The notes under the pieces were generated by a model. The model had not been told where the DNA came from. It did not search any database and saw only the letters and a program-made list of their open reading frames with translations. The translations under genes were made by a program, and so were the position numbers. DNA of 64,000 nucleotides from a virus (Duplodnaviria > Heunggongvirae > Uroviricota > Caudoviricetes), in the IMG/VR virus record IMGVR_UViG_3300020685_000002. The stretch is one strand, 5' to 3'. This document shows, one piece after another, positions 2,047-58,189 of the stretch; within the stretch, counting starts at the first letter, position 1, and every line of letters begins with the position of its first letter.

Positions 2047-2693
2047 AATTATTAAACGAATTTACAGAATCGGTCTCAACTAATGTGTTGGTTGAAGAAA
2101 CGACTGGCAAAAAATCTTATAAAATTAATGGTCCATTTATTCATACAGAAGAAGCAAATAGAAATGGTCGTATTTATATAAAAGAACATATGCTTCCGGA
2201 AGTTTCTAGATATAAAAAAGATTTTGTAGATACAAGAAGAGCATTAGGAGAACTTTCTCACCCAGAAGGTCCAGCAATCAACCCTGATAAAGTTTCTCAT
2301 TTAATTACAAAATTAGAATTTGTTGATAATTTGTGCATTGGCGAGGCAACAATTCTAGATACCCCGAATGGTAATATCGTTAAATCATTTATTGATGCTG
2401 GAGTAAATTTTGGCGTCTCAACTAGAGGTCTTGGTTCGATCAAAGAATCTGGCGGTTTGAAATATGTCCAACCAGATTTTCGCTTAGTTACAGTAGATAT
2501 AGTTTTAGATCCATCTGGAAAAGCGTGTTATGTCGAAGGATTGATGGAAGGAAAAGAATGGATGTATGTTGATGGGAAAGGTTGGGTAGAACAATACCTT
2601 GAAGAATCGCGAAAAACCTTAAAAACACTAAAAGCTAAAGATGTTGAACCAATGGCGTTACAAATTTTTGAGAATTTTCTCGCAAAATTATAA
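2043..2693 (+). CDS. 21: Prohead core protease gp21.
   Basis: ALGELSHP....STRGLGS motifs match the T4 gp21 protease. The position is syntenic. Confidence 0.88.
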   Translation: MKLLNEFTESVSTNVLVEETTGKKSYKINGPFIHTEEANRNGRIYIKEHMLPEVSRYKKDFVDTRRALGELSHPEGPAINPDKVSHLITKLEFVDNLCIGEATILDTPNGNIVKSFIDAGVNFGVSTRGLGSIKESGGLKYVQPDFRLVTVDIVLDPSGKACYVEGLMEGKEWMYVDGKGWVEQYLEESRKTLKTLKAKDVEPMALQIFENFLAKL

Positions 2694-2696
2694 CTT

Positions 2697-2704
2697 TTAT
2701 AAAT
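2697..2704 (+). promoter_or_regulatory. T4-type late promoter box TATAAATA upstream of g22.
   Basis: An exact TATAAATA lies about 30 nt upstream of the g22 ATG, with an AAGAGGA ribosome-binding site. Confidence 0.5.
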
Positions 2705-2735
2705 AATACTAAACGAAATCTAAGAGGATATATAC

Positions 2736-3827
2736 ATGTCAAAAGAAAAAAATTTGAATCTTTCTGAAGCTGCATTAGAGATTCTGAACACAAACGTAAA
2801 AACAAAAGATGCTAGCCAAGATAAATTCGGCCAAGGCGAAAAATTAAAAGATACAGTAAATAAAAGTGCTTCTGATATCGGAAGTGCAAGTTTTGCAGAA
2901 TATGATTTGAAAGATGTTCCTACTGCAACTGCTCCAGGAGAAACTCCTCCTGTTGGCTCAGAACCAATTAAAAAATTAGCTCCTCAACCAGCAGAAACTT
3001 CAACAGCTGTTGATACTAAAGTTGACCAATTACCTAAAAAGGGAAAATTTGTTAACGAAGAGGAAGAAGTTGATGAAACTGAATCTGAAGAAGAAGTTAA
3101 TGAAGATATCGAAGCATTAATGGCTGGCGAAAACCTTTCTGAAGAATTTAAAAAGAAAGCTACTGCTATCTTTGAAGCTGCTGTTAAAGCAAAAGTTTCT
3201 GAATTAGCTGAAGAATTAGAAGCACAATATGTTGCTCAATTCGAAGAAGCTTATGAAGAAATGAAAGAAGATTTCTCAACAAAAGTAGACGAATATTTAG
3301 ATTACGTTGTTGAATCTTGGTTAGAAGAAAATACTCTTGCTATTGAATCAGGTCTAAGAACTGAAATAGCTGAAGGTTTTATGGAATCATTAAAAGCAGT
3401 GTTCGAAGAGCACTATATTGATATCCCTGAAGAAAAATTTGATGTAGTTGAAAGTTTAACTTCTAAAGTAGAAGTTTTAGAAAAACAAGTCAATGAAGAA
3501 ATGACAAAAAACATTAACTTGAAACAAAAATTGTCAGAACAAAAGAAAGTAGAAGCTCTTCATGCAGTTTGTGAAGGATTAACTTTATCTCAAGCAGAAA
3601 AAATTAAATCTATCGCCGAGGGTGTAGAATTTGTTTCTGATGAAGATTTCGTAAATCAAATGGAAGACATTAAAGAATCTTATTTCTCTACTGCTACTTC
3701 TGTTAAACCCGCTTCGAAAGAATCTTTGAACGATGTAGTAGAATTAATCGAAGAAAAAGAACAAAAAGTTGTTGATCCAGTTATCGCAGCTTATGCTTCT
3801 AAAATTTCTCAAACACTATTAAAATAA
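2736..3827 (+). CDS. 22: Prohead scaffolding core protein gp22.
   Basis: The protein is acidic and Glu/Lys-rich with coiled-coil character. It lies between g21 and g23. Confidence 0.8.
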   Translation: MSKEKNLNLSEAALEILNTNVKTKDASQDKFGQGEKLKDTVNKSASDIGSASFAEYDLKDVPTATAPGETPPVGSEPIKKLAPQPAETSTAVDTKVDQLPKKGKFVNEEEEVDETESEEEVNEDIEALMAGENLSEEFKKKATAIFEAAVKAKVSELAEELEAQYVAQFEEAYEEMKEDFSTKVDEYLDYVVESWLEENTLAIESGLRTEIAEGFMESLKAVFEEHYIDIPEEKFDVVESLTSKVEVLEKQVNEEMTKNINLKQKLSEQKKVEALHAVCEGLTLSQAEKIKSIAEGVEFVSDEDFVNQMEDIKESYFSTATSVKPASKESLNDVVELIEEKEQKVVDPVIAAYASKISQTLLK

Positions 3828-3861: not shown

Positions 3862-5184
3862 ATGGCATTATTAAACGAAGAATTAAACCTAAAATGGGGT
3901 CCAATTTTAGAGCACCCTGAATTAACTAGCATTTCTGATCCATATAAAAAAGCAGTTACTGCTATTATTTTAGAAAATCAACAAAATGCAATGGATGCTG
4001 ATCGTCAAACTTTGAACGAAACAACAACTAACGTTGCTGGTGGTATTTCAAATTTTGATCCAATCTTAATCAGCTTAGTACGTCGTGCGCTTCCTAACTT
4101 AATTGCTTATGATATCGCTGGCGTTCAACCAATGACTGGCCCAACTGGTTTGATCTTTGCATTACGTTCACGTTACGGTTCACAATCTGGCGCCGAAGCT
4201 TTCTACAATGAAGCTAATACTATCTTCTCTGGTATTATTGGTAATACTCCAGCAGGTAATACTGGTTCTACTACTGCTTCTGCTGCTTCTGCAAATAGTG
4301 CTGTTGATTCTACTGGTCCATTAGCTTTATCTAGTTTTGATACTGGTACTGGTTTAACTACTGCTTTGGGTGAAGTTTTAGGTGCATCAAACGCTTTCCC
4401 TGAAATGGGTATCTCTATCGAGAAAGTAACTGTTTCTGCTAAAACTCGTGCATTGAAAGCTGAGTACTCTTTAGAAATGGCACAAGACTTAAAAGCAATT
4501 CATGGTCTTGACGCTGAAACTGAATTGTCTAATATTCTTTCTACTGAAATTTTATCAGAAATCAACCGTGAAGTTATCCGTACTATCTACACTGTAGCTA
4601 AAGCTGGTGCTCAATTCGGTACTGTAACTCCTGGTATATTTGATTTAGATACTGACTCAAATGGTCGTTGGTCAGTTGAGCGTTTCAAAGGTTTGATTTA
4701 TCATATCGAAAGAGAAGCTAACCAAATCGCGAAAACTACTCGTAGAGGAAAAGGTAACATCTTAATCGTTTCTTCTGATGTTGCTTCTGCTTTAGCAATG
4801 GCTGGTGTATTACAATATACTCCTGCTCTTTCTGCTGATCTACAAGTAGATGACACTGGAAATACTTTTGCTGGTTTGTTACATGGTCGTATCAAAGTTT
4901 ATATCGATCCTTATTTTGGTGGTTCTGCACAAAACGTAGAATTATGTACTGTTGGTTATAAAGGTACTTCTCCTTATGATTCAGGTTTATTCTACTGCCC
5001 ATACGTTCCTTTACAAATGGTTCGTGCAGTTGATCCTTCAACTTTCCAACCAAAAATTGGATTTAAGACTCGTTACGGTTTAGTTGCTAATCCTTTTGCT
5101 GAAGGTTTAAACCAAGGTTTAGGACAATTAAATGCTCGTGCAAACTTATATTACAGAATTTTTGCTATCAAAAACTTAATGTAA
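3862..5184 (+). CDS. 23: Major capsid protein gp23.
   Basis: The 440 aa protein sits in the syntenic position after g22. It has a strong AAGGAG ribosome-binding site and codon usage typical of a highly expressed gene. Sequence features match T4-like gp23 (LNEELNLKWGP.., GVQPMTGPTGLIFALR). Confidence 0.9.
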   Translation: MALLNEELNLKWGPILEHPELTSISDPYKKAVTAIILENQQNAMDADRQTLNETTTNVAGGISNFDPILISLVRRALPNLIAYDIAGVQPMTGPTGLIFALRSRYGSQSGAEAFYNEANTIFSGIIGNTPAGNTGSTTASAASANSAVDSTGPLALSSFDTGTGLTTALGEVLGASNAFPEMGISIEKVTVSAKTRALKAEYSLEMAQDLKAIHGLDAETELSNILSTEILSEINREVIRTIYTVAKAGAQFGTVTPGIFDLDTDSNGRWSVERFKGLIYHIEREANQIAKTTRRGKGNILIVSSDVASALAMAGVLQYTPALSADLQVDDTGNTFAGLLHGRIKVYIDPYFGGSAQNVELCTVGYKGTSPYDSGLFYCPYVPLQMVRAVDPSTFQPKIGFKTRYGLVANPFAEGLNQGLGQLNARANLYYRIFAIKNLM

Positions 5185-5211
5185 TAGAAACTATAACTTC
5201 GGTTATATTAG

Positions 5212-5239
5212 GAAAGGGGCTGAAAAGCCCCTTTTTTAT
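5212..5239. terminator. Rho-independent terminator that may serve both convergent genes.
   Basis: AAGGGGC-TGAAAA-GCCCCTT hairpin followed by T6. It lies between the g23 stop and the stop of the minus-strand gene. Confidence 0.75.
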
Positions 5240-5241
5240 GC

Positions 5242-6582
5242 TTAAAAGAAAGAATCAAAAGTAACAATTTCTTCTTCAATAAAATGATCTTTCCATAATT
5301 TATCAGCAACCCTTTTTACTTCAGGATTCTCTTTTCCAACAAGGGGTTGTTCATATTCTCCGCTATTATTACCTCCAAATGCAAGATTAATGAATTGTGA
5401 AGCAATAGTTTTTCTATCAAACGATAAAAGTTTCTTTTGATTGTTTTTAATAATTTTAAGATAATCTTTTTCATTAATATTAAAATATTGATTGATAAGA
5501 TCACCAAACTCTTTTGGTGTTGCATCATGAGGAATCATTAAATAATTTTCGTTTGGTTTAAATACTTCACCAATACCTTTTTCGTTGTCTGAAACTCCAA
5601 AATTTCTAGCAATAGGGACAACACCATTAAGCATAGAATCAACAATTACTCTATTAAAATGTTCTCCATAATTCATAGACCAACTAGGATCTAATAAAAA
5701 TTTACATGTATCAAGAATTTCGTCACGCTTATTTTCGGTAATAAATCCAATATATGAGAATTTTCCTGAATTTGCAGCATTGTCCCAAATTGGCATATTT
5801 AATCTATCACTACCAGCATTTGGATCTAATTGTTTTGTACAATGATATTCTGGCTTACACTTATCAACGGAAGTCATATAATTCCTTTCAATCCCATCAC
5901 CAGCTACAATAACATATCCATCAATATAGGGAACTGCTGCAATTAAATCATCAACCCTTTTCCACCGCTTAAATGTTTGTAAAGATAAAATTTTATCTTC
6001 TTTTAAAGCAAAAGATGGTATTTTCTGTTTTGATAAATCTTGAGGATTTAAAATTAAATTTCTTGGAACAGTTAAAAAATTAGCTGATTTTACTGCTGAT
6101 GGGTGAACACAAGCAAGACCTGAAAATTTATGTTGAAATTTATATATCCAAGAATAATTCTTAATAAGATTTCCGTCATGAATAACAACAATTTGTTTTG
6201 CTGTTACATCTTCAATCATTGGAGTCCAATCAAGAAAGTGTTCTGTTTCTGAATTTTTAAACCCAAAAATAGATTGCCAAATAACCAAATCATGTTTATT
6301 TGCATCTTCCACAAATCTAGAAATTTCATTAGTGTTCTTTAAAGCATAATACGGACAAATCCAACCCTTTCCTTGATGGACTGGATATCCAGTCCCCACA
6401 CCAATCTCATATCCTTCTTTTAAAGAATAATCAAGATCTCCTTTCTGAGGAGTTTTTGTTGGTTTCACAAATGCAAATGTCACATCATGACCAAGTTCTT
6501 TTAATCCAGCACATAACTGCTCATTATGATTAATAATTCCACCAAAATTATTAAACACATGCATAACTACAAATATTTTCAT
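5242..6582 (-). CDS. GT-B fold glycosyltransferase (GT1/GT4-like).
   Basis: N-terminus MKIFVVMHVFNNFGGIINH...GHDV is typical of a GT-B N-domain. The C-domain carries VIVAGDG and an E..F.RV..D.M..G.PI nucleotide-sugar-binding signature. Confidence 0.55.
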   Translation of the reverse strand: MKIFVVMHVFNNFGGIINHNEQLCAGLKELGHDVTFAFVKPTKTPQKGDLDYSLKEGYEIGVGTGYPVHQGKGWICPYYALKNTNEISRFVEDANKHDLVIWQSIFGFKNSETEHFLDWTPMIEDVTAKQIVVIHDGNLIKNYSWIYKFQHKFSGLACVHPSAVKSANFLTVPRNLILNPQDLSKQKIPSFALKEDKILSLQTFKRWKRVDDLIAAVPYIDGYVIVAGDGIERNYMTSVDKCKPEYHCTKQLDPNAGSDRLNMPIWDNAANSGKFSYIGFITENKRDEILDTCKFLLDPSWSMNYGEHFNRVIVDSMLNGVVPIARNFGVSDNEKGIGEVFKPNENYLMIPHDATPKEFGDLINQYFNINEKDYLKIIKNNQKKLLSFDRKTIASQFINLAFGGNNSGEYEQPLVGKENPEVKRVADKLWKDHFIEEEIVTFDSFF

Positions 6583-26355: not shown

Positions 26356-27264
26356 ATGAGTTTACTTGAAAAACTTAAAAAAAATTCAACGATAAAAGAA
26401 TCATCTATTTTATCTGTATCAAAATTTTTTACTAAAAAGGATATGATAACAACTCCAATTCCTGCGTTTAATGTTGCATTATCAGGCAGATTGGATGGCG
26501 GATTAACTCCAGGACTTTCATTATTTTGTGGTCCTAGTAAACATTTTAAAAGCCTTTTTTGTTTGATTTTAGCTAAAGCATATATGGATAAATATCCAGA
26601 ATCTGTATTAGTATTTTATGATTGCGAATTTGGTACACCCGAAGCGTATTTTGATTCATTAGGTATGGATAAAGATAGAATTCTCCATACCCCAATTATG
26701 AATATGGAAGAGTTTAAATTTGATATTATTAATCACCTTCAAAATATTACTAGAGGCGACAAAGTAATATTTGTTGTTGATTCTTTAGGAAATATGGCTA
26801 GTAAAAAAGAAACTGATGATGCTATTGATGGTAAATCTGTTGCTGATATGACTCGTGCAAAATCTATGAAATCTATGTTTCGTATGATTACACCATATCT
26901 AGTTAAATATGATATTCCTATGGTAGCAGTAAATCATATCTATATGACTCAGGAAATGTTCAGTAAACCAGTCGTTAGCGGGGGTTGTGTTGTAGCAGGC
27001 ACTAAAATTCAAATGTTTGATAGATCGTTAAAATCTATTGAGGATATTACACCTGGATGTTTGGTTAAAACTCAAGATGGTCCTAAAATTGTTACACATA
27101 GTTGGAACCCAGAGACACTTTTAGATGGAAATCCAGAATGTTATAAAATTACATTTGAAGATGGTTACTCTGTAATTTGCTCTGATGAACACCCATTTCT
27201 TAAAAATTCAGAATTTGTATCGGCAAAGGAACTTAGTATTGGAGATGATATAACAACATTGTGA
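26356..27264 (+). CDS. uvsX: UvsX recombinase N-terminal fragment (N-extein 26356-26985) fused to a split-intein N-fragment (IntN 26986-27261, about 92 aa).
   Basis: The sequence aligns to T4 UvsX up to ..HIYMTQEMFSKPVVSGG. It then continues as CVVAGTKI.. with Hint blocks A and B and ends at a stop codon. Confidence 0.8.
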   Translation: MSLLEKLKKNSTIKESSILSVSKFFTKKDMITTPIPAFNVALSGRLDGGLTPGLSLFCGPSKHFKSLFCLILAKAYMDKYPESVLVFYDCEFGTPEAYFDSLGMDKDRILHTPIMNMEEFKFDIINHLQNITRGDKVIFVVDSLGNMASKKETDDAIDGKSVADMTRAKSMKSMFRMITPYLVKYDIPMVAVNHIYMTQEMFSKPVVSGGCVVAGTKIQMFDRSLKSIEDITPGCLVKTQDGPKIVTHSWNPETLLDGNPECYKITFEDGYSVICSDEHPFLKNSEFVSAKELSIGDDITTL

Positions 27265-27429
27265 AATACAAAAAGTGGAAAAAAATATATTTGATACTGT
27301 TATGGATAAAGATGTTTGGGCAACAACATCATCATTTCAAAAACGTGAAATTTGCATATATTGTGGGAAAGAAAGTGTGGTCGGTAATATTAAACGCTGG
27401 CATAATGATAATTGTAAAGAGAAAAAAAT

Positions 27430-27987
27430 ATGAAAATTGTTAATATAGAAAAAGTTGGTAAAAGAAACGTATTTGATATAACTGTTGCTGATAATCATCA
27501 ATATGTACTAGAAAATGGTGTTATCACACATAATACTGGTGTTTATCTTTCTGCTGATAATATTTACATCTTGGGCAGACAACAAGAAAAAGAAGGTACT
27601 GATGTTGTTGGGTATAATTTTATTATAAATGTTGAAAAATCAAGACATGTTCGTGAAAAATCAAAAATACCAATTACTGTAAAATATGAAGGCGGTTTAA
27701 GTTCTTGGTCAGGTTTAATTGATATGGCTCTAGAATCAGGACATGTTGTAAAACCATCTAATGGTTGGTATTCGCGAGTTAATACTGCGACAGGCGAGGT
27801 TGAAGAAAAGAAATATCGCCTTAAAGATACAGATACAAAGGACTTCTGGAATAAAATATTATTAGATAAAACTTTTCAAGATTGGATTAAATCTAATTAT
27901 CAAGTATCTCATGGAAATATTTTAGCTTCAGATAAAGATATAGAACAAACATTTGCAGAAATTGGGGATGATGATGAAGAATTATAA
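27430..27987 (+). CDS. uvsX: Split-intein C-fragment (IntC 27430-27534, 35 aa, ending ..VITHN) fused to the UvsX C-extein (from T at 27535).
   Basis: MKIVNIEKVGKRNVFDITVADNHQYVLENGVITHN carries intein blocks F and G. It is followed by TGVYLSADNIYILGRQ.., which continues the alignment to T4 UvsX (TGPMYSADTVFIIGKRQ). The gene has its own ribosome-binding site (AAAGAG) and ATG. Confidence 0.8.
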   Translation: MKIVNIEKVGKRNVFDITVADNHQYVLENGVITHNTGVYLSADNIYILGRQQEKEGTDVVGYNFIINVEKSRHVREKSKIPITVKYEGGLSSWSGLIDMALESGHVVKPSNGWYSRVNTATGEVEEKKYRLKDTDTKDFWNKILLDKTFQDWIKSNYQVSHGNILASDKDIEQTFAEIGDDDEEL

Positions 27988-54877: not shown

Positions 54878-55876
54878 ATGGTTATGGGAATAAGAATACT
54901 AACTCCTAAAACAATTTATACAACGGATTATCCTACTGCTATAGAATTTGCAGAAAAACAAGCTGAGGTATTTTGGCTTCCTACTGAAATTGAAGTAGAA
55001 AAAGATCTTCATGAGTTAAAAACAAATTTTACTGAAGCAGAATATCATGGTGTTATTTCAACATTAAAATTATTCACTCTTTATGAATTAAATGTTGGAA
55101 ATGATTATTGGCAAAATTATATTTCTAAAGTTTTTCCGAGACCAGATATTCAAAGAATGGCTGCAACATTTTCTTTTATGGAATTGGGTGTTCATGCACC
55201 ATTCTATAATAAAATTAATGAAGTTCTTGGTTTAGATAATGATGAGTTCTATACTGATTATTTAAATGATGAAGTTCTTGCAAATAGAATGGCTTGGATA
55301 GGTAAACGAACTGAGAAAAGAAATACTGTTTATGACGTATTAAAATCAGTTGGTATTTTCTCTATGATTGAAGGTGCAATTCTTTATTCAAGTTTTGCTT
55401 TCTTGAAACATTTCAATTCTGCAGGTAAAAATAAATTAGTAGCTATTAATGCTGGAATCAATTTCTCTGCGATTGATGAAACTTTACATTCACAAGCTGG
55501 CGGTTGGTTATTTAGAACATTATTAAAAGAAGCTAAAGAAGATGGTCAAGTAACAGATATATTTGTTGAAGAATTAATTCGAGAACTTGAAGAAACTGCT
55601 AAAGTGATATTAGAACACGAATCAATAATTATTGATAAAATATTTGAGAAAGGTCAAATTAAAGGTATTACTGAAAATCAATTGAAACGGTTTGTTGAAT
55701 CTAGATTAGATATTTGTTTAGAAAATCTTGGATATAAAGGAATTTTTAAACCAACGTATAATCCGATTAAATCTTGGTTCTATAAAGATCTAGAATCTTC
55801 TACGTTGCACGACTTTTTTTCGTCGCAAGGTTCTGATTATAATAGAAATTGGATTGAAAATAAATTTAAATGGTAA
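54878..55876 (+). CDS. nrdB: Ribonucleotide reductase small subunit (class I beta).
   Basis: Diiron ligand pattern (E..H, SFAFLKHF, ETLHSQ) and a C-terminal tail. Confidence 0.8.
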   Translation: MVMGIRILTPKTIYTTDYPTAIEFAEKQAEVFWLPTEIEVEKDLHELKTNFTEAEYHGVISTLKLFTLYELNVGNDYWQNYISKVFPRPDIQRMAATFSFMELGVHAPFYNKINEVLGLDNDEFYTDYLNDEVLANRMAWIGKRTEKRNTVYDVLKSVGIFSMIEGAILYSSFAFLKHFNSAGKNKLVAINAGINFSAIDETLHSQAGGWLFRTLLKEAKEDGQVTDIFVEELIRELEETAKVILEHESIIIDKIFEKGQIKGITENQLKRFVESRLDICLENLGYKGIFKPTYNPIKSWFYKDLESSTLHDFFSSQGSDYNRNWIENKFKW

Positions 55877-57018
55877 CTGAAATGAAAGAATTATCAATAT
55901 ACGACGAATTAGGTGAAGAAAGAAAAAAATTGCAAGGTGAAGGTAAATTACCAATGTGGTGTTCGACTATTGCATGGCAAATGCTTAAAGAAAATTATCT
56001 TTCTGAAAAATATCCTGATTTAAAATCAGTATATACACGTGTAGCTAAACATGCTGCGCAATATACTACAAATCCTGATGAATGGGAACAAAAATTCTTT
56101 GATCTATTCTGGAAAGGATATTTGGCAGCTTCAACTCCTGTATTGTCTAATATGGGAACAGGATTTGGTTGTTCTGTAAGTTGTTCAGGCGGATATATCA
56201 ATGATTCAGTTTATGATTTCTATGATGCACAAAAAGAAGCTGCAGTTCTATCAAAAAATGGTTTTGGTACATCAGGCTATCTTGGTGCAATTAGACCAAG
56301 AGGTTCTAAAATTTTTGGAATGAAAGGTAGTGCTTCTGGTGTCCTTCCAGTATTCAAAGATTTTATACAAATGTCTAGAGATATTTCTCAAGGTTCACAA
56401 AGACGAGGTGCTTGGGCTGGGTATCTTGAAATTGATCATGATGATTTTTATGAATTGGTAAATTATATCGGTAAGAATCCTGACGATGCAAATATTGGAT
56501 GGATTATCACAAAAAACTTTATTGATAGATTAGATGCTGGTGATAATGATGCAATTTCTAGATATCAAAAAGCGTTAAAGTTGAAAATGATTACTGGAAA
56601 GGGTTATTTCATTAAAATTGATGCTATTAATGAACAAAATCCACAAATGTATAAAGATAAAGGTTTATCTGTAAAAGCATCAAATTTGTGTTTAACTGGT
56701 GATACTAGAATTAATATTAAAGGTGATATTAGTGGCGAACTACAAGTATCAATGGAAGGGTTAAATAATTATTTAGGTAAAAATGATGATGTAGAAAATT
56801 GGAAGGTTTGGTCATATAACACAGAAACTAACATGAGCGAATGGAAAAAAATTATAAAATCTGCACAAACATCAATATCGACTAAGATAATGAATATTAC
56901 AGACGAAATAACTGGAAAATCTATAAAATGTACGCCAGATCATAAGATTTTTACCGAGAACCGTGGATATGTTTGTGCAAAAGATTTAATGGAAAATGAT
57001 GTATTATTATTAAAATAG
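55870..57018 (+). CDS. nrdA: Class I RNR large-subunit N-terminal fragment (no ATP cone), ending ..ASNL, fused to a split-intein N-fragment (IntN 56689-57015, about 109 aa).
   Basis: RNR alpha core motifs (GCSVSC.., SQGSQRRGAWAGYL) lead up to the active-site SNL. The sequence then continues as CLTGDTRINIKGD.. (Hint block A) to a TAG stop. Confidence 0.75.
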   Translation: MVTEMKELSIYDELGEERKKLQGEGKLPMWCSTIAWQMLKENYLSEKYPDLKSVYTRVAKHAAQYTTNPDEWEQKFFDLFWKGYLAASTPVLSNMGTGFGCSVSCSGGYINDSVYDFYDAQKEAAVLSKNGFGTSGYLGAIRPRGSKIFGMKGSASGVLPVFKDFIQMSRDISQGSQRRGAWAGYLEIDHDDFYELVNYIGKNPDDANIGWIITKNFIDRLDAGDNDAISRYQKALKLKMITGKGYFIKIDAINEQNPQMYKDKGLSVKASNLCLTGDTRINIKGDISGELQVSMEGLNNYLGKNDDVENWKVWSYNTETNMSEWKKIIKSAQTSISTKIMNITDEITGKSIKCTPDHKIFTENRGYVCAKDLMENDVLLLK

Positions 57019-57193
57019 TTTTGTGTACTGAAATATGACGAAAATATTCCTAGTTCATTTGGCGGAACTTATAGAGAAAATATTACTACTAAAAAGATTC
57101 AAAAATTACTTATAGATAAGTTTGGTGCAATTGATAAACAGTTGGGTTCATATGCTAAACACCATACAAATAAAATAAAAGAGGAAATTGAAA

Positions 57194-58189
57194 ATGAGTT
57201 TAAAAATTGAGTATTTAGAAAATGAAGAAGCGGTATATGATATATCTGTAGAAGATAACCACAATTTTTTTGCTAATGGTATATTAGTACATAATTGCAC
57301 GGAAATCACATTATTTTCTGATGAGGATCATACATTTTCTTGTGTTCTTTCATCTATGAATGCGTCTCTTTATGATGAATGGAAAGATACAGATGCTGTG
57401 TTTAATGCTACAGTATTCTTGGATTGCGTCAATCAAGATCTAATTGAAATTGGTAAAAACACTAAGGGAATGGAAAGGGTTGTTAGATTTGCTGAAAAAT
57501 CAAGAGCATTGGGATTAGGTCTTCTTGGTTTTCATACTTATCTTCAAGATCATTTAATTGCTTTTGAATCTTTAGAAGCTAATTTTAAAAATGTAGAAAT
57601 ATTTAAACATCTTGATGCAGAATCAAAACGTGCTTCTGAATGGATGGCTAAAGAATTTGGTGAACCTGAATGGTGTAAAGGGTATGGAGTAAGAAATACC
57701 CATAGAATTGCAGTGGCACCAAATCTTTCTTCTGCGTTAATCTGTGGTTCTGTGAGTCAAGGTATTGAACCTATCTATAAAAATGCTTATGTTCAAAATA
57801 CAGCAGCAGGAAAAATGGATAGGGTTAATCCTTCATTATTAACGTTGATGAAAAAAATAAATGTATATTCAGAAGAAACTGTTAAAGATATTATTTCTAA
57901 TAATGGTTCTGTTCAGCATGTAGATTGGTTAACAGATGAAGAAAAAATAGTATTTAAAACTGCTTTTGAAATTAATCAGCATAGTATAATTAGATTGGCT
58001 TCTACAAGACAAAAATATATTGACCAAGCTCAATCTATAAATCTTTTCTTCTCTGCTGATGAAGATGAAGAATATATTTCAGAAGTCCATAAAGCTGCCT
58101 TTAAAGATCCTTATATTAAATCGTTGTATTATATTAGATCTGAAACTGGGGTTAATGTTTCAAAAGAGTGTCTGAGTTGTCATGGTTGA
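57194..58189 (+). CDS. nrdA: Split-intein C-fragment (IntC 57194-57295, 34 aa, ending ..ILVHN) fused to the RNR large-subunit C-extein, which begins with the catalytic C of SNL|CTEI.
   Basis: MSLKIEYLENEEAVYDISVEDNHNFFANGILVHN carries intein blocks F and G. CTEITLF.. then restores the SNLCxEI motif. The gene has its own AAGAGGA ribosome-binding site and ATG, in a different frame from the N-fragment. Confidence 0.75.
   Translation: MSLKIEYLENEEAVYDISVEDNHNFFANGILVHNCTEITLFSDEDHTFSCVLSSMNASLYDEWKDTDAVFNATVFLDCVNQDLIEIGKNTKGMERVVRFAEKSRALGLGLLGFHTYLQDHLIAFESLEANFKNVEIFKHLDAESKRASEWMAKEFGEPEWCKGYGVRNTHRIAVAPNLSSALICGSVSQGIEPIYKNAYVQNTAAGKMDRVNPSLLTLMKKINVYSEETVKDIISNNGSVQHVDWLTDEEKIVFKTAFEINQHSIIRLASTRQKYIDQAQSINLFFSADEDEEYISEVHKAAFKDPYIKSLYYIRSETGVNVSKECLSCHG

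Follow-up and report, generated by a model that had tools for sequence, protein, structure and literature searches.

A fractured uvsX recombinase gene carrying the halves of a predicted split intein in an uncultured T4-like phage

In the fractured genes described by Dassa et al. (2009; PMC2677866), two adjacent open reading frames (ORFs) on the same strand encode the N-terminal part of a host protein followed by an N-terminal intein half (IntN), and then a C-terminal intein half (IntC) followed by the remainder of the host protein. The hosts listed in that work, whose examples came from metagenomic reads, are gp41, IMPDH, DnaE, NrdA, NrdJ, ligase, and terminase, and UvsX is present there only as a neighboring gene. 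Here, the same arrangement is described for uvsX in a 64,000-nucleotide (nt) stretch of DNA from the IMG/VR virus record IMGVR_UViG_3300020685_000002 (hereafter, the window); full-text literature searches turned up no account of a UvsX intein. It is very likely, from the evidence presented below, that the two pieces of this gene are rejoined by class-1 protein trans-splicing, and that the intein halves belong to a cassette that was split by an endonuclease and has since lost 754 nt. The locus brings a phage RecA-family recombinase, UvsX, into the set of genes recognized as fractured by split inteins, and it is a recombinase, either UvsX or host RecA, that the mobility of homing endonucleases itself requires (PMC2988022).

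The uvsX locus resembles the genes of Dassa et al. in several further respects. Its split lies at the usual HINT endonuclease-insertion point, as in gp41-1, with an IntN of ~90 residues and an IntC of ~35 residues, its host is a T4-like DNA-metabolism gene, and the ancestral form, represented by the related locus L004 (IMGVR_UViG_3300027896_001022; other related loci are cited below by similar L numbers), has a free-standing NUMOD endonuclease between the halves. It differs in the host, UvsX, in the presence of Thr at the +1 position, and in the endonuclease, which in the window has shrunk to a 56-codon tail. The gp41-7 locus is an endonuclease-less fractured gene and represents "step III" of the model of Dassa et al. 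(2009; PMC2677866), and the window can be placed in the same state because only a 56-codon 3′ relic is kept between its intein halves. At both loci the halves are adjacent and no functional endonuclease stands between them, but unlike at gp41-7, an endonuclease-bearing allele that is 98-99% identical to that of the window (L004) defines the exact 754-nt deletion, and a recognizable 3′ relic remains.

The uvsX intein is also similar to the Npu and Ssp DnaE inteins, which are naturally split class-1 inteins with an IntC of ~35 residues; in the uvsX intein, IntN is acidic and the start of IntC basic. The DnaE split intein has Cys at +1. The dnaE halves are found at distant genomic loci, corresponding to step IV of the Dassa model (PMC2677866), whereas the uvsX halves are 165 nt apart and probably carried on one transcript. 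As in nrdA/mobE of phage Aeh1 (PMC3045599), an essential-type gene of a T4-like phage has been cut by a free-standing homing endonuclease gene, but Aeh1 NrdA is intein-free and its pieces assemble non-covalently, while both UvsX pieces carry intein halves with all of the splicing residues. Inteins within the core of a RecA-family recombinase are found in Mycobacterium tuberculosis RecA (PI-MtuI) and Pyrococcus horikoshii RadA; unlike these, which are contiguous and splice in cis, the uvsX intein is split and lies in the ...SGG/TG... motif (a slash marks the splice junction throughout). The PI-MtuI and RadA inteins occupy other insertion sites.

The divided uvsX gene and its intein

Frame 1 holds both uvsX ORFs of the window. 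ORF1 (26356..27264, + strand; 302 residues) encodes UvsX residues 1-210 and then a 92-residue IntN followed by TGA, and ORF2 (27430..27987, + strand; 185 residues) encodes a 35-residue IntC (MKIV...NGVITHN) and then UvsX residues 211-360. An earlier reading of this DNA from its letters alone (the sequence-only reading) had already placed uvsX in two ORFs bearing IntN and IntC, and its estimates of 92 and 35 residues for the halves and of 165 nt for the spacer are borne out, with an N-extein of 210 residues. It had also given ORF2 a start and a ribosome-binding site of its own; the separate ATG is present at 27430, and the ribosome-binding site is only putative, a weak AAAGAG at 27416-27421. 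The features of the locus, including a relic of the L004 endonuclease gene, are the following:

26356..26985, + strand: uvsX N-extein, 210 codons, C-terminal end ...NHIYMTQEMFSKPVVSGG; aligns with T4 UvsX (PDB 3IO5)
26986..27264, + strand: IntN, 92 codons, from Cys1 (CVVAGTKI...) to ...DDITTL, including block B SDEH; the TGA is at 27262-27264
27261..27267, + strand: GTGAAAT, deletion scar with 7-nt microhomology, including the IntN stop codon; single copy in the window
27263..27433, + strand: relic of the free-standing endonuclease gene, matching the final 56 codons of the L004 gene (tblastn with the L004 endonuclease)
27265..27429, + strand: spacer between the two uvsX ORFs, 165 nt
27416..27421, + strand: AAAGAG, putative Shine-Dalgarno sequence read from the DNA, 8 nt upstream of the ORF2 ATG
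27430..27534, + strand: IntC, 35 codons, MKIVNIEKVGKRNVFDITVADNHQYVLENGVITHN, including the block F Asp and the terminal His-Asn
27535..27987, + strand: uvsX C-extein, 150 codons plus stop, beginning with the +1 Thr (TGVYLSAD...); Pfam T4_UVSX_C, 4.9e-18

Joining of ORF1 and ORF2 by readthrough or frameshifting is excluded because many stops in their frame are found across the spacer. A group I intron, or any other joining at the RNA level, was considered and rejected, given the lack of an Rfam intron match, the absence of structure above that of shuffled sequences, and a spacer of only 165 nt. At E ≤ 1, Rfam returned only a chance snoRNA match outside of the spacer, and within the spacer there was neither stable RNA structure above shuffles (folding z-score +0.85) nor a promoter or terminator above shuffled expectation.

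The interpretation of the extra pieces in uvsX as halves of one class-1 intein at a conserved site is supported by profile searches and by residue conservation. Each half by itself falls below the threshold for Pfam Intein_splicing, and the halves fused in silico score 44.2 bits, with a gathering cut-off of 35.8. The top relative in the PDB is the naturally split, cyanophage-like gp41-1 intein (6QAZ; E=1.7e-9 with the single sequence and 1.5e-12 with a family profile), whose split point aligns with the IntN/IntC break of the window; the HMMER alignment behind the former value covers residues 13-127, and the similarity is modest. The next PDB profile matches are Npu DnaE (4KL6; E=6e-10), the Mtu RecA mini-intein (6e-6), and the Pho RadA intein (3.5e-5). 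Tako8, a designed repeat protein that ranked first among the PDB profile matches, was set aside as a repeat artefact, since none of its individual stretches was significant. An alignment of 11 diverged uvsX inteins, 47-77% identical to that of the window, shows no variation at C1, at S66 and H69 of block B, at D108 of block F, or at H126, N127, and T+1. Block B reads S-D-E-H (S-x-x-H), and block F and the C terminus read VFDITV...VITHN, followed by T. The net charge is -7 for IntN, +3 for the first 13 residues of IntC, and 0 for IntC as a whole, these being charges of the chains and not of a modeled interface.

The exteins, as the sequence-only reading supposed, are the two parts of UvsX. Spliced in silico, the 360-residue protein is colinear with T4 UvsX (3IO5; E=4.4e-109), and the alignment runs ungapped through the junction, where the window reads ...mtqemfskpvvsgg/tgvylsad... 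and T4 reads ...ETQEMFSKTVMGGG/TGPMYSAD.... Close relatives without an intein (L014-L017, L019, and L022) have ...SGGTGVY... uninterrupted. For the window and L006, the only pair quoted here, nonsynonymous (dN) and synonymous (dS) divergence are dN=0.169 and dS=1.162 for the intein and dN=0.270 and dS=1.313 for the exteins; dS is saturated in most other pairs. By these estimates, the intein appears to be under purifying selection similar to that on the exteins. The description of this recombinase as essential in the sequence-only reading was too strong, because T4 uvsX mutants are impaired yet viable.

Endonuclease relic and cassette mobility

The sequence-only reading had also pointed to a frame-2 mini-ORF with a CxxC...HxxxC motif in the spacer, proposing it as either a relic or the functional core of the homing endonuclease that split the intein. 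This mini-ORF is present at 27275..27433, encodes 52 residues from a GTG, and has a zinc-finger-like tail (C-x2-C-x13-RWHxDNC), and its TGA overlaps the ORF2 ATG; no Pfam domain was found in it. L004 harbors the same cassette with a 919-nt spacer and encodes, at 2621-3499, a 292-residue protein with matches to NUMOD3 (1.5e-7) and to PHROG homing-endonuclease families (3.7e-14 and 7.8e-14). The PHROG matches cover residues 2-185 and 11-108, a region that is deleted in the window, and the spacer of the window corresponds to residues 237-292 of the L004 enzyme (98% amino acid identity by tblastn; 98.2% nucleotide identity), while phrog_655 gives a weak match to the window relic (E=0.0099). From this comparison, the mini-ORF is the relic of such an endonuclease, comprising the last 52-56 codons of a 292-residue enzyme and lacking the nuclease catalytic region. 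The alternative of a functional core is wrong, as the N-terminal nuclease-type region has been deleted, and the remaining 3′ remnant is probably inert.

The heptamer GTGAAAT occurs twice in L004, at 2573-2579, where it overlaps the IntN stop, and at 3327-3333, and once in the window, which is equal to L004 minus the 754 nt between the two repeats. This points to a microhomology-mediated 754-nt deletion as the event by which the endonuclease was lost in the window, and the near-identical pair of alleles resolves one such loss to the nucleotide level. The deletion took the late-promoter-like element TATAAATA, the start codon, and the entire N-terminal nuclease-type region. The T4-type late-promoter-like TATAAATA lies between the IntN stop and the endonuclease start in L004 (~2580-2600) and also in L086 (~2790-2800), and late-promoter elements have been reported for fractured-gene endonucleases (Dassa et al. 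2009; PMC2677866).

A C-terminal C-x2-C-x12-13-RWHxDNC motif is usual for the endonucleases at many related loci. Among truncated relics, the motif is intact at 8 independent loci (the window, L002, L089, L095, L112, L130, L136, and L150) and broken at 3 (Cys to Gly in L012, and loss of CxxC in L127 and L159), and split alleles with spacers of 27-166 nt but no detectable relic are found at L084, L093, L102, L107, L131, L143, L153, and L160. The pattern across loci fits a progressive decay of the endonuclease, with the tail probably the last part to go because it adjoins the indispensable ORF2 start.

A GIY-YIG assignment for the L004 endonuclease was tried and rejected, as Pfam passes NUMOD3 only and BLASTP against the GIY-YIG endonuclease of Shewanella phage Thanatos-1 is not significant. 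It is therefore described here as a homing endonuclease belonging to PHROG families 314, 7504, and 655, with a visible YIVY...YIGS motif. The endonucleases found between the same intein halves come from unrelated families: the Thanatos-1 enzyme (L003, 2778-3431) belongs to Pfam GIY-YIG/SegE and has no zinc-finger tail, and the L004 enzyme has both NUMOD3 and the zinc-finger tail. It would therefore seem that one split point has undergone repeated invasion or replacement.

Nucleotide identity between the window and L004 is distributed as follows:

polB 3′ end: 55%
uvsX N-extein: 75.7%
IntN: 98.6%
relic: 98.2%
IntC: 99.0%
uvsX C-extein: 69.0%

Dense mismatches end 7 nt before the start of the intein and restart 6 nt past its end. 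Since the breakpoints in identity coincide with the intein boundaries, the IntN-endonuclease-IntC unit appears to have been transferred laterally, and recently, between diverged phages, and the comparison indicates that the whole cassette is a mobile unit moved by homing.

Distribution of the intein family and interpretation of the split

The family was surveyed through the best 80 relatives of the intein obtained from IMG/VR by profile search. All 80 loci are in uvsX and share the same GG/C...HN/TG site. Contiguous mini-inteins of 129-160 residues account for 12 of them. Long spacers, of 578-1438 nt, separate the halves at 44 split loci (a free-standing endonuclease is found between the halves at 44 of the 80), and short ones, of 27-324 nt, do so at 21; the remaining 3 run off the ends of their contigs. 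Related phages, to which the sequence-only reading had turned for contiguous or inteinless alleles, thus provide both at this site, the latter of the L014 type. One intein family therefore presents all stages of the life cycle, from contiguous mini-intein, to split intein with endonuclease, to decaying endonuclease, to bare split.

The fractured arrangement of uvsX is not unique to the phage represented by the window; it is widespread among T4-like phages, some of them cultured and already in GenBank. The split allele with an endonuclease is present in the finished genomes of Proteus phages Pm5461 and PM2, Yersinia phage TG1, Escherichia phages HY03 and ELT1, Salmonella phage pSe_SNUABM_01, Shewanella phage Thanatos-1, and Vibrio phage vB_VmeM-32, among other cultured phages; the annotation in cultured carriers is merely of two recombination proteins plus a homing endonuclease. 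With carriers among cultured phages of E. coli, Proteus, Yersinia, Salmonella, Shewanella, and Vibrio, a natural fractured gene is therefore open to genetics. The family also offers dozens of divergent split inteins, related to gp41-1 and with Thr at the +1 junction, as possible orthogonal tools for protein ligation. The source of the window is itself an uncultured, T4-like phage with an AT-rich genome (29.7% G+C); a megablast search with 24 kb around the locus found no close relative among cultured phages, and its DNA polymerase is ≤47% identical to cyanophage polymerases.

For the production of UvsX, ORF1 and ORF2 would probably be carried on a single transcript, ORF2 would be translated from its own ATG, and the acidic IntN and the basic start of IntC would associate to complete the HINT fold. 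Cys1 would undergo an N-S acyl shift, Thr+1 would take part in transesterification, and the terminal Asn (Asn127) would cyclize, yielding a 360-residue UvsX with a native ...VVSGG-TGVY... junction, for which the junction peptide would span ...PVVSGGTGVYLSADNIYILGR. The history of the locus would have begun with the splitting of the intein by a free-standing homing endonuclease gene inserted between blocks B and F, and the later GTGAAAT/GTGAAAT deletion stripped the promoter region, start codon, and N-terminal nuclease-type region from the endonuclease gene.

Several points weigh against this account. The ribosome-binding site of ORF2 (AAAGAG) is weak, Ser66 replaces the more usual Thr in block B, and Thr at +1 is less usual among characterized natural split inteins. 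The selection estimates are rough, with dS close to saturation for most pairs, and for every member of the uvsX intein family, splicing is inferred from sequence. AlphaFold2, run on the fused intein as a single sequence, gave an uninformative model (predicted local distance difference test score of 36.5) that was left unused, and the assignment of the HINT fold therefore rests on homology.

Splice-free enzymes encoded by genes in pieces do exist in T4-like phages, as exemplified by Aeh1 nrdA (PMC2677866, PMC3045599), and the UvsX fragments might similarly stay associated non-covalently, through the intein halves or through contacts of their own, and function without splicing. We regard this as decidedly unlikely, since residues that serve only splicing (C1, the block B His, the block F Asp, the His-Asn, and Thr+1) do not vary among alleles with 47-77% identity to the intein of the window, and since the split lies inside the conserved core motif ...SGG/TG..., where a 127-residue HINT domain would stay inserted in the absence of splicing. 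It might instead be argued that uvsX is a decaying pseudogene, with recombinase activity either gone or provided by the host or a different gene, as the gene is interrupted, the endonuclease inside it is visibly decaying, and the visible portion of the genome is 64 kb only. Such decay is very improbable, however, for a gene with undamaged exteins and intein halves, a dN/dS far below 1, and no frameshift or internal stop in either ORF, and whose split architecture recurs in many diverged lineages that include viable cultured phages; in addition, no second uvsX or recA paralogue is detectable within the 64-kb window. To the possibility that errors in sequencing or assembly created the stop and spacer and that the intein is truly contiguous, which the sequence-only reading had itself raised and which would accord with the contiguous mini-inteins at the same site in other phages (12 of the 80 loci), we attach next to no credence. 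The index of a public collection lists the exact ORF1 protein in 34 blocks, from which 24 carrier contigs were read, and 3 contigs from different samples (SRR398176, ERZ27271902, and ERZ27271912) do not differ from the window at any of the 1632 nt; the split is thus not an assembly artefact. The many in-frame stops of the spacer, its homology to the 3′ end of an endonuclease gene, and the split alleles in many other contigs and in finished phage genomes all argue in the same direction.

Trans-splicing remains our preferred explanation, and one further proposal would add to it rather than replace it, namely that the mini-ORF is active, either as a small DNA-binding zinc-finger protein or as a translational bridge between ORF1 and ORF2 that balances the two halves. 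The motif is intact in the 8 independently truncated loci and broken in only 3, ORF1 stops 10 nt upstream of the GTG at 27275, and the overlap of the relic TGA with the ORF2 ATG would suit a bridge. Activity of this kind is nonetheless unlikely: many split alleles have no detectable relic, three relics have a broken motif, and neither the GTG at 27275 nor an ATG at 27302 has a Shine-Dalgarno sequence. The deletion is also recent (~98% identity to L004), so that an intact motif carries little weight, and proximity to the indispensable ORF2 start explains the survival of this relic as the last piece. The related idea that the split intein is a post-translational gate on UvsX activity, with the tail ORF setting the ratio of the halves as a bridge or zinc-finger regulator, we consider quite unlikely. 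The presence of three intein sites within 12 UvsX residues and of a second split intein in ribonucleotide reductase (RNR), both described below, could fit a gate, although selfish homing could explain the clustering and the RNR intein equally well.

Neighboring intein sites and a second fractured gene

Two more uvsX intein sites are found ≤12 residues from that of the window, and both are split with an endonuclease ORF between the halves (~283-349 open codons). The first, ...NHIYM/C...SHN/TQEMY, occurs in L021 and L047 (about 4600-5800), and the other, ...NHIYMEQG/C...AHN/SMYPK, in L024 (679-2202) and L025. The neighborhood of the UvsX ...SGG/TG... motif is an intein hot-spot.

Variation was also observed among alleles at the site used in the window. 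One sub-lineage of uvsX split inteins (L130, L156-L158, L162, and L163) has Ser in place of the penultimate His, with VVSN/TG as the C-terminal junction. Met is kept at the IntC start position in 3 of 7 distinct contiguous mini-intein alleles, L087 (2501-2893), L090, and L094, where the junctions read ...RIMKIAKI, ...EIMKIKSI, and ...NTMKIISI, respectively, and some contiguous uvsX inteins may be re-fusions of once-split inteins rather than their ancestors. The sequence following the contiguous 160-residue intein of L097-L099 (ITHN/TKLELASQG) is not UvsX-like (TGxxYSAD), and there may be a further insertion, frameshift, or rearrangement downstream. In Vibrio phage vB_VmeM-32 (L002, 221-1790), the DNA polymerase upstream of the fractured uvsX is annotated as two coding sequences (221-1096 and 1185-1790) and may be another gene in pieces.

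The second fractured gene of the window encodes the RNR large subunit:

55870-58189: RNR large subunit (class-I-type), fractured, both ORFs
55870..57018: first RNR ORF, with a 109-residue IntN at 56689-57015 (SNL/CLTGDTRINIK...) and a TAG stop at 57016-57018
57194-57295: 34-residue IntC at the start of the second RNR ORF (ATG at 57194), ...NFFANGILVHN/CTEI, with the C-extein from 57296

Both RNR halves have Pfam Ribonuc_red_lgC and Intein_splicing matches, and the joined intein halves score 66.8 bits. The spacer is 175 nt and has no endonuclease; 63 open codons that follow the TAG in the IntN frame have no PHROG match and could be another endonuclease relic. The intein is inserted directly N-terminal to the NLC-TE active-site motif, immediately ahead of the active-site Cys, and its site matches the point of integration into NrdA given by Dassa et al. 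(2009; PMC2677866).

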